This document shows, piece by piece, positions 3,365-52,368 of a stretch of 64,000 nt of DNA; the stretch's first letter is position 1, and each line of letters opens with the position of its first letter. The DNA is from Escherichia coli. GTDB taxonomy: Bacteria; Pseudomonadota; Gammaproteobacteria; Enterobacterales; Enterobacteriaceae. The notes under the pieces are model-generated. The model searched no databases, had not been told where the DNA came from, and saw nothing but the letters and a program-made list of their open reading frames with translations. A program made the translations under genes and the position numbers. Location of the stretch: assembly GCF_003334385.1 (NCBI RefSeq), contig NZ_QOWN01000011.1. One strand, 5' to 3'.

Positions 3365-4672
<1,308 letters not shown>

Positions 4673-4930
4673 TCAAAAAATCACAGTGCTCGGTCAACTC
4701 TTACCCCGCAAGCACAGGTTGTTGGCTTCGCGGAACCGGGATGTTCTTATAATCAATCACATTCCCTGTTACCAGAATCATCCCGAAAGCATTCAAATAG
4801 GACGCGGCATTATAGCGGCATCACTTTTATGAGTCGAGAACGGTTATTGCGCGCTGTCGCGTATTTTTTCACAATTCCCGGGCAATTTTCGTCTGAATGC
4901 TGGGCAAAAAGCGCAAAATCCAGACAAAAC

Positions 4931-4953
4931 AAAACGGCCCGCAGGCCGTTTTT
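4931..4953. terminator. Palindromic hairpin downstream of bolA, probable terminator
   Basis: AAAACGGCC CGCA GGCCGTTTT perfect palindrome with flanking A/T runs on both sides. Confidence 0.5.
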
Positions 4954-5006
4954 CATAAAATCTTTAGCAACATACTGGAAAAGCGCCGACAGTTGCAAAT
5001 GCGTTT

Positions 5007-49776: not shown

Positions 49777-50688
49777 ATGCTGTGGTTCAAAAATTTAATG
49801 GTTTACCGTCTTAGCCGCGAGATTTCGCTGCGTGCAGAAGAGATGGAAAAACAGCTAGCCTCGATGGCATTTACCCCATGCGGCAGCCAGGACATGGCGA
49901 AGATGGGCTGGGTTCCTCCGATGGGATCGCACAGCGATGCGTTAACGCACGTTGCCAATGGTCAAATTGTTATCTGCGCGCGCAAAGAAGAAAAAATCCT
50001 CCCGTCTCCGGTGATTAAACAGGCGCTGGAAGCGAAAATCGCCAAACTGGAAGCGGAACAGGCGCGTAAGCTGAAGAAAACCGAAAAAGATTCGCTGAAA
50101 GACGAAGTGCTGCACTCTCTGCTGCCGCGTGCTTTCAGCCGTTTTAGCCAGACAATGATGTGGATCGACACGGTTAACGGTTTGATTATGGTGGACTGCG
50201 CCAGTGCCAAAAAAGCGGAAGATACGCTGGCATTACTGCGTAAAAGCCTGGGGTCGTTACCGGTTGTACCATTGAGCATGGAAAACCCGATTGAACTGAC
50301 GCTGACCGAATGGGTTCGCTCCGGTAGTGCGGCACAGGGCTTCCAGCTGCTTGATGAAGCCGAGCTGAAATCGTTGCTGGAAGATGGCGGCGTGATCCGC
50401 GCGAAGAAACAAGATCTGACCAGCGAAGAGATCACCAATCACATTGAAGCCGGAAAAGTGGTGACTAAACTGGCGCTCGACTGGCAGCAGCGCATTCAGT
50501 TTGTGATGTGCGACGATGGTTCGCTCAAGCGTCTGAAGTTCTGCGACGAGCTGCGCGATCAAAACGAAGATATCGACCGTGAAGATTTCGCCCAGCGTTT
50601 TGATGCCGATTTCATCCTGATGACTGGTGAACTGGCAGCGTTAATTCAAAACCTGATTGAAGGATTAGGTGGCGAAGCACAACGTTAA
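49777..50688 (+). CDS. rdgC: Recombination-associated protein RdgC
   Basis: 303-aa protein starting [16 protein letters not shown]; internal start within the supplied ORF 49705..50688. Confidence 0.94.
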
Positions 50689-50705
50689 TTGCTGATTTTC
50701 CTTTA

Positions 50706-50743
50706 ATGCCGGATGCGACGCCTGCCGCGTCTTATCCGGCGTA
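50706..50743. repeat. REP element downstream of rdgC
   Basis: ATGCCGGATGCGACGCCTGCCGCGTCTTATCCGGCGTAC. Confidence 0.6.
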
Positions 50744-50845
50744 CGAAGCCACACCAGGCATATAATTATTCGCTACGGCGAGCAATAATTTGTAGCGCAG
50801 CAATATTATGCGTTTTACGCTGTAACTTGCTCCATGGACGTTGTG

Positions 50846-51127
50846 TCATTGTTTTTCCTCAAGCCGGTGACGCGCTTCACTGCGAATTTTCCGCGTTGCC
50901 CCGGTTTTCACTAAATCACGTAACAGCGAAAGATCGGGTTGTTCGACAAATAAGAGTAATGATGGATCCTCTTTTAACCACGCCGTTTTCACATCGGCAG
51001 CCAGCTGTGGATTATTAATAGCCAGCGACCGATCCTGAGGCTCAGTCAATGTCGTTAACAACAACGCCGGGGTATGTGCGTTGCGCAATGCCGTTTGGCG
51101 TAAATGATCATTGCGACTTTGCAGCAA
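50846..51127 (-). CDS. ykiA: Small uncharacterized ORF, tentatively ykiA by map position; possibly a gene remnant
   Basis: 93-aa ORF with a TTG start; the same reading frame stays open a further 23 codons upstream; identification is by position only. Confidence 0.35.
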   Translation of the reverse strand: MLQSRNDHLRQTALRNAHTPALLLTTLTEPQDRSLAINNPQLAADVKTAWLKEDPSLLLFVEQPDLSLLRDLVKTGATRKIRSEARHRLEEKQ

Positions 51128-51334
51128 TGCACGCCACCATTCATCATCTGATTTATCTTTTATCGTAGCCAGTTCCGCAACAATATCTGGAGATCTTCAC
51201 TGATATTTATATCAACCTTGATAAATTATGAATATATCGGAAATTGAAAAAATCGCAGCAAAGGAAATATTATTATGGGCTAAAGAAAGGATATTTCAGA
51301 AAAATGCCCTCCCGTTCAAGGGGAAGGCGAGGAA

Positions 51335-51619
51335 TTACAGATAGCGGCACAGATAAGAGGTGGGTTCGGCAACTTGCAGATGAAACTCACTGTGACCGGG
51401 AACATTAAACACCGAACCGGCTTCATACACCTGCCAGTCGGTCGCGTCAGGCAGTAACACATTCAGCGCGCCACTGATTACCGTCATCTCTTCCGGCTCA
51501 GCGGTGCTGAAGGTGTATTCGCCTTCAACCATAACACCCACGCTGGCGCGACCAGTGCTGCTGCTGGAAAAGCCGATTGATTTCACTTTGCCGGAAAAGT
51601 ACTCATTACTTTGAAGCAT
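51335..51619 (-). CDS. ppnP: Pyrimidine/purine nucleoside phosphorylase PpnP
   Basis: 94-aa [33 protein letters not shown]... Confidence 0.94.
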
Positions 51620-51690
51620 AAACTGGCCCTGTTTGGTAGTTGAACATCTACTTCACTATAGGGGCCAGAGGCGCTGGCTGTCACGCAAAA

Positions 51691-52368
51691 TTACACCAGT
51701 AATTCCGCAGCCAGCCGTGCAATCAATACGTTAGACAGCAAGACAGGAACATCGAGCTGTTTTTGCAGTAAATCGCGATGACGTTGGTGAAATCCTAAAC
51801 AATCCAGCATGATGACATCAGCCCCTTTTGCCAGTAATTCTTTCCCGGCATCAATGATTTTTTGTTCTGAATCATGAATGGGGTTACCCAATGAAAATAC
51901 CGGCGATTTCTGCAAAATTTGCCATTTTTGCGCCTGAACGGGCAGCATCTCCTCAACCGGAACGATAACCCCCACCTGATGATCTTCAACAATAGAGGAA
52001 ACCAGTGGAGGCAATATTCGCGACGGCTCAAGAAAGATCGTATTACGCGCAGTCATACTACTAATGTTTGCTGTACTCATTAATAAAATGACGTCATAAC
52101 CCTGATTATCGAGCACTTCAACCACACCTTGCAGGTCACGCTCCACTTTGCGACGCGAAACATGGGCCAGCTGGTTGTCATTTAATAATGTGAGAATGGT
52201 GTCTTCGCCTGCTTCTGGCGCGTACTCCGCCATCACTTCTTCACGACTTAACTTCCCCAGCAGGCTATGATGGGAAATATTATCTTCGTCAATGTATTCC
52301 GTCAGGAGCGGCAAAACTTCCTGCATAGGTACAATGCCGATGGTCAGGATCGCCAACGACGCACTCAT
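51691..52368 (-). CDS. aroM: AroM protein, function unknown
   Basis: 225-aa [32 protein letters not shown]...; downstream of aroL-yaiA on the same strand. Confidence 0.93.

Follow-up and report, generated by a model that had tools for sequence, protein, structure and literature searches.

A C-terminal remnant of the DUF2773 gene ykiA, very probably inert as a protein, in the rdgC-ppnP interval of a K-12-like Escherichia coli

The interval between rdgC and ppnP in the stretch of Escherichia coli DNA analysed here (64,000 nt, referred to as the window) contains a reading frame, ykiA′, that is very probably the C-terminal fragment of a 759-codon gene lying behind that gene's surviving promoter, the remnant being non-functional as a protein. 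It is an ordinary, already annotated pseudogene and little about it is new, since the K-12 locus stands in RefSeq as a DUF2773 pseudogene truncated at the N-terminus ([quoted passage not shown]), with coordinates identical to those in the window. What is added here is the precise position of the breakpoints, the sequence in which the decay steps occurred and how common each is, the recognition of YkiD as the remnant of an SF0329-family gene, and the paralogy of the intact protein to YdbD. Homology, deletions, allele census and substitution pattern are shown directly, and promoter activity and YkiD detection have been published.

The genes in this part of the window are ordered mak-rdgC-[gap]-ppnP-aroM-yaiA-aroL, a chromosome segment of K-12-like E. 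coli. The locus was 100% identical to that of strain N18-04097 over 851 bp and 99.9% identical to that of K-12 MG1655, the single-base difference from the latter changing residue 20 of YkiD from K (MG1655) to Q (window). In agreement with the preliminary description of this DNA, the gap is 646 bp long, the rdgC stop codon ending at 50688 and the ppnP stop codon starting at 51335, and it holds a 93-codon ORF with a TTG start (minus strand, 50846..51127, 93 aa). The frame also stays open, as described there, for 23 further codons to 51196, with an in-frame TGA at 51199-51197, which gives 116 codons from stop to stop; no convincing Shine-Dalgarno sequence was found in this extension, nor an ATG or a GTG. 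The TTG at 51127 itself is preceded by GGTGG, 6 nt upstream, and some translation of the 93-aa peptide could occur from it. Between the convergent ends of rdgC and ykiD lies a REP-type hairpin (50708..50740; an inverted repeat with 14-nt arms, 86% complementary), which is probably the 3′ end or stabiliser of the rdgC and ykiD transcripts. It matched the Rfam family naRNA4 (REP-derived) below threshold, with 27.8 bits against a gathering score of 59.5 bits, and scanning of 50500-51700 against Rfam revealed nothing beyond this REP-like match.

The larger gene supposed in the preliminary description was found intact at the same locus in O157:H7 and in 443 other complete E. coli genomes. In O157:H7 the rdgC-ppnP interval is 2953 bp and contains an intact 759-codon DUF2773 gene and, behind it, an SF0329-family gene of 149 codons, the two overlapping as ATGA; the intact cassette is also present in strains Combat11I9 and 23S01245-7. 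The window aligned to both ends of the intact 2953-bp segment, which bears out the proposal that a deletion had left the C-terminal remnant of a larger gene. By blastn, the remnant frame had 95.7% nucleotide identity to the 3′ end of the O157:H7 gene (positions 4592-4961 of locus record L003). ykiA′ (50846..51187, minus strand) comprises the last 113 codons plus the stop codon, corresponding to residues 647-759 in O157 numbering; it covers the whole DUF2773 segment with about 93% amino acid identity to the intact protein, belongs by this match to Pfam DUF2773 (PF10971), and spans about three LRV/HEAT-like helical repeats. The homology to the 3′ end of a 759-codon gene, together with the strong DUF2773 match, indicates that the reading frame is not there by chance. 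The full-length YdbD/YkiA architecture was found in the intact alleles, whereas in the window only 113 of the 759 codons are left, the start, the signal peptide and the beta-helix being gone.

Comparison with the O157 allele by blastn and MAFFT revealed that 1939 bp had been lost and 5 nt of filler added, leaving a net gap of 1934 bp. The deletion begins 1 nt ahead of the ATG and ends with codon 646, so that codon 647 (GAT, 51187) now abuts the 5′ leader; ykiA lost its start codon, its signal peptide and 85% of its length. The junction (51188..51192, minus strand) consists of the 5 nt CTCCA, matching neither side of the intact allele and left unaligned by blastn (query 589-593); the only microhomology at the breakpoints, apart from the filler, is an imperfect 6-bp repeat in the intact allele (GAAGAT/GAGGAT). 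The net 1934-bp gap was common to the 11 non-intact E. coli alleles aligned by MAFFT, a count that leaves out the IS1-disrupted allele of strain STO_Bone1B, for which no clean alignment was obtained. This shared gap indicates that the large deletion came first, as a single event, and that the other lesions were acquired later.

The region upstream of the junction (51193..51334, minus strand) is the retained upstream region of ykiA, collinear with that of the intact alleles and comprising the 5′ leader and the promoter PykiA. This is the AT-rich tract, with a GC content of 27-30% at 51150-51300 (100-bp windows) vs 48-58% in the flanking genes. The preliminary description was right as to the presence of the tract, but the length of about 200 bp given there was too great, 100-bp GC windows placing it nearer 150 bp. 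Nor is the tract a scar or foreign DNA: alignment revealed it to be ykiA's own upstream region, and in the intact alleles of O157, E. whittamii and Escherichia sp. E1V33 the sequence preceding the start codon is collinear with it and well conserved. Within it, a terminator scan located the intrinsic terminator of ppnP (51306..51328, minus strand), a hairpin with an 8-bp stem of which 6 pairs are GC, followed by a T-rich tail, which is kept in all four aligned species/alleles.

Salscheider et al. (PMC3950696) list ykiA as a BglJ-RcsB target of "unknown function (113 aa)", show that a ykiA promoter fragment is activated by BglJ-RcsB, and give a PykiA start site mapped by 5′-RACE with the binding site centred 79 nt upstream. 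Examination of the tract revealed a -10-like CATAAT at 51230-51225 (minus strand), which may be that of PykiA and would place the start of transcription near 51218. It also revealed TTTTCTGA at 51303-51296 (minus strand), a candidate activator box that fits the motif core wwTTCykA of PMC3950696; the distance between this box and the putative start is about the published spacing. Two elements on the plus strand were noticed as well, a 38-codon ATG ORF antisense to PykiA (51228-51344) that runs into the 3′ end of ppnP, and a sigma-70-like site with 10/12 matches (TTGAAA-18-TATTAT, 51244-51273); both are probably chance occurrences in such AT-rich DNA.

The start codon of ykiD (50766..50849, minus strand; 27 codons; RefSeq "protein YkiD") overlaps the stop codon of ykiA′ as ATGA. 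ykiD was found to be residues 1-11 of SF0329 fused to residues 136-151, from a 151-codon gene whose intact alleles terminate in ...RRKTHNIAALKIIARRSE. The small deletion inside the SF0329 gene removed 372 bp, equal to 124 codons, in frame. It is flanked by the imperfect 10-bp direct repeats CGCCGTAACT and CGCTGTAACT, and its junction, located by the MAFFT gap and by comparison of the flanks, lies at 50818..50827, where the two blastn segments overlap by 10 nt. ykiD's own Shine-Dalgarno sequence, GAGGA, is preserved within the last codons of ykiA, and YkiD has been detected by chromosomal SPA tagging and reported as a new small protein (VanOrsdel et al., PMC6001520). Taken together, the published activity of PykiA, the detection of YkiD and the kept Shine-Dalgarno sequence indicate that the locus is transcribed and ykiD translated, though both genes are remnants. 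With 27 of 151 codons, ykiD falls outside the SF0329 family, membership of which requires a match over most of a profile of ~160 positions, and because 124 of the 151 codons are missing it is unable to form the predicted SF0329 fold. Among nine K-12-type alleles compared, YkiD varied at 4 of its 27 positions, and the last residue was absent in EcN-type alleles.

The intact YkiA protein begins with MNRINILVICMVLFFMTGNACA-TEW, a Sec-type signal peptide by inspection, and is predicted to be periplasmic. An AlphaFold2 model built on a 48-sequence alignment (pLDDT 92) contains a beta-helix (about residues 68-176) as well as an all-alpha, LRV/ARM-like solenoid of roughly 500 residues, running from about residue 240 to the C-terminus and ending in DUF2773. 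The sole Pfam match of the intact O157 protein was DUF2773 (residues 679-759, E 1.5e-39, full model 1-81), and LRV or LRV_2 was matched in 6-8 of the 48 family members at E <= 0.001, with HEAT_2 also found among members. Neither intact protein had a match in PADLOC or PHROGs, sequence searching of the PDB yielded nothing for YkiA and mere noise for SF0329, and literature searches on SF0329 and DUF2773 returned nothing relevant. Classification of YkiA as a bactofilin was rejected: the bactofilin profile (PF04519) had no match at E <= 10 in intact YkiA and reached only E 0.05 in YdbD, and the predicted beta-helix, absent from the window anyway, resembles that of bactofilins in general shape only.

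A profile search of 1.84 billion representative proteins revealed 70 relatives of YkiA at E <= 1e-30, many of them 750-800 aa long, and the sampled contexts of distant homologues contained no conserved partner gene. Scanning of contigs with peptide patterns, which would miss diverged relatives, detected ykiA orthologues at two loci only, both in Escherichia. E. whittamii and Escherichia sp. E1V33 carry the orthologue intact at the same ppnP-rdgC site; its protein identity to the E. coli gene (L029/L030 4001-6271 vs L003 4620-6899) was 72-73%, as compared with 92-99% for the flanking genes. In the intact E. coli ykiA alleles pN/pS was 0.44-0.95, and ykiA is a fast-evolving or weakly constrained gene even where intact.

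The intact SF0329 gene of E. coli has 149-151 codons and lies between ykiA and rdgC; the predicted fold of its product (AlphaFold pLDDT 87) had no match in the PDB. There were 533 homologues, and 50 that were aligned keep 54-85% identity to the E. coli protein. The homologue records include some labelled with distant phyla (Prevotellaceae, Paenibacillus, Bradymonadia), identity across phyla being 54-68%. In five of nine sampled contexts the SF0329 homologue stands in an array of small same-strand genes, twice beside a tyrosine recombinase, and the array genes include Imm10, SUKH-3, SMI1_KNR4/SUKH_6, UPF0167, DUF4240+WGR, Macro, DUF4303 and CbrC. Such arrays look like orphan immunity-gene islands, and this gene context suggests that SF0329 may be an orphan immunity-type protein. 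Putative toxin domains are encoded beside SF0329 homologues, for example in a protein of >2140 aa at the Paenibacillus locus. It was also noticed that in E. whittamii and E1V33 the SF0329 gene has been cut by an independent deletion with other boundaries to 21 codons, MRSRRKTHNIAALKIIARRSE (L029 6277-6342; L030), and that this short ORF has the same C-terminal tail, RKTHNIAALKIIARRSE. Since the same tail occurs in both remnants, the last ~17 codons escaped two separate SF0329 deletions.

There is no obligate pairing of ykiA with SF0329, each being kept without the other: ykiA in E. whittamii and E1V33, and SF0329 in about 57 E. coli genomes. A toxin-immunity pair, with ykiA as the toxin and SF0329 as the immunity gene, was ruled out by this retention of each gene alone in different lineages. 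In addition, distant YkiA homologues had no SF0329 neighbour in the sampled contexts, and the C-terminus of YkiA is predicted to consist of helical repeats rather than an enzyme-like domain.

Across strains the locus ranged from 643 to 2953 bp; neither an equal length nor intact homologues of similar size, the outcome that the preliminary description had named as contrary to its reading, was seen. In a census of 5426 complete E. coli genomes, with class sizes estimated from bands of BLAST coverage together with a small number of sampled records, 1) the full cassette (coverage 80% or more) was present in 444 genomes (8.2%), 2) an intact SF0329 gene with the ykiA remnant in about 57 genomes (about 1%), 3) SF0329 only, the ykiA remnant having been lost by a further 320 bp, in about 430 genomes (about 8%), 4) the K-12 type with ykiA remnant and ykiD in about 4485 genomes (about 83%), and 5) an IS1 insertion or replacement in a handful of genomes. 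In the SF0329-only class, all three records sampled had a frameshift that reduces the product to 14 aa. In strain STO_Bone1B, IS1 was found in place of nearly the whole ykiA′-ykiD interval (L022 2646-3343), and in strain PEC408 (H11) it was inserted into this interval; the IS1 alleles indicate that the remnant locus tolerates further disruption. Locus searches placed it on a plasmid in only 1-2 cases.

The pooled pN/pS of ykiA′ was 0.70, a ratio to be read in view of the seven remnant alleles and 113 codons it is drawn from and of transition bias, vs 0.03 for rdgC, 0 for ppnP and 0.10 for aroM in the same strains. ykiA′ evolves almost neutrally, as a pseudogene does, with weak residual constraint being possible as the ratio is below 1. 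Further lesions were found in natural strains: the frame is shifted in A19, broken by an internal stop in 1517k and MRY15-117, and shortened by 3 nt in MS10858/60. The remnant thus has the attributes of a pseudogene: partial homology, a lost start, relaxed selection, and additional disabling mutations in the population. The ykiA′ peptide is presumably without function.

Three other readings were weighed against that of an inert remnant. The first is a joint one, in which YkiD, and perhaps the TTG-initiated 93-aa peptide, would have gained a role in the envelope-stress regulon, the transcript then being more than noise and ykiD a "new" small protein born from gene decay, and separately SF0329 would be a widespread orphan immunity-type protein and YkiA/YdbD an exported beta-helix/solenoid envelope factor; we consider this combination unlikely. 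A second reading, that the remnant has been re-used, holds that the 93-113-aa helical-repeat YkiA peptide and/or the 27-aa YkiD is functional and kept under the BglJ-RcsB promoter. The frame of 116 codons is still open in most sampled K-12-type alleles, PykiA is active and inducible, YkiD is detectable as a protein, the K-12-type arrangement persists across divergent lineages with 92.9-100% identity over the locus, and the ratio for ykiA′ is not exactly 1, all of which would be expected of a re-used remnant. Against this, ykiA′ has neither an ATG/GTG start nor a signal peptide, whereas the full-length parent is apparently exported; natural strains carry alleles with frameshifts, stops, indels or complete loss; the pN/pS of ykiA′ exceeds that of the neighbouring genes by a factor of 7 to more than 20; YkiD is variable and shortened by one residue in some alleles; and the remnant has been lost altogether in about 8% of genomes. 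Re-use is therefore very improbable.

The third reading, offered as an alternative in the preliminary description, takes the gap as an excision scar left by a mobile element or islet, with the short allele arising by precise or imprecise excision; the low GC content of the intact segment (ykiA 42% and SF0329 45% vs 51-56% for rdgC, ppnP and mak, with aroM at 47%), the length polymorphism of the locus and the IS1 found there in a few strains would fit it, but it is extremely unlikely, as the intact allele and the junctions are devoid of integrase or transposase genes, att-like direct repeats, terminal inverted repeats and target-site duplications, both breakpoints of the large deletion are internal to the gene and its leader, 0.5 kb of the segment has been retained, and the same site is occupied by an intact gene in E. 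whittamii and in a cryptic Escherichia clade. This last observation indicates that the 2.9-kb segment is old resident DNA.

For the preferred reading, that of gene decay, the following course is very probable. The ancestral state was a low-GC two-gene unit after ppnP, made up of ykiA (759 codons) and then the SF0329-family gene (151 codons), joined by the ATGA overlap. In ykiA, presumably an Escherichia-specific gene, one old deletion set the promoter and leader directly against codon 647, and later lineages underwent the 372-bp in-frame loss in SF0329 (K-12 type), the loss of the ykiA remnant, or damage by IS1. With no start codon and no signal peptide, the K-12-type remnant would be drifting neutrally and be inert as a protein. 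BglJ-RcsB acting at PykiA gives rise to a remnant transcript that carries ykiD, which is translated from its preserved ribosome-binding site.

The value of these results is mainly one of annotation hygiene, and they call for no change to current concepts. The BglJ-RcsB-regulated gene proper is the 759-codon gene for a predicted exported protein; because K-12 has lost it, regulon studies in K-12 miss the biology of ykiA, for which O157:H7 or E. whittamii would be suitable instead. The case of YkiD illustrates that detectable small proteins can be products of gene decay, and in the 5426 genomes the locus displays its decay as a clean series of ordered intermediates.

Among known systems, the closest is the ykiA (b0392) pseudogene of E. 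coli K-12, which is the same locus as that in the window and shows no essential difference from it. Intact YkiA is a full-length paralogue of K-12 YdbD (b1407; 768 aa; RefSeq "DUF2773 domain-containing bactofilin"), with 28% identity over 747 aa by BLASTP (E 3e-84) and a TM of 0.72 by Foldseek against AFDB, and the remnant in the window had 38% identity to YdbD residues 656-766. Like YkiA, YdbD starts with a hydrophobic, signal-like segment, continues with a beta-helix and an alpha-solenoid and ends in DUF2773, and its GC content (43.5%) is similarly low. Unlike ykiA, ydbD is located elsewhere, upstream of ynbABCD, remains intact in K-12 and is not followed by an SF0329 gene. For YdbD, induction by sigma-E has been reported, and its description reads "induced by methylglyoxal" (PMC2731931). 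It was noticed that ydbD lies directly upstream of ynbABCD (L028 25811-28893) and that the ynbA promoter, as is that of ykiA, is a published BglJ-RcsB target; through these two promoters both DUF2773 paralogue loci are tied to BglJ-RcsB.

The LRV and HEAT/ARM solenoids are represented by Foldseek matches in the PDB to PP2A-A, importins and designed armadillo proteins, which are generic scaffolds; these families are without the signal peptide and N-terminal beta-helix of YkiA, and the O157 protein is without a significant LRV/HEAT Pfam match. As for the SF0329 family (Pfam PF25753, NCBIfam NF049912), the gene downstream of intact ykiA scored 93.7 bits vs a 60-bit cutoff, with a Pfam E-value of 4.8e-22, whereas ykiD shares with the family its first 11 and last 16 codons and is a remnant, not a functional member.
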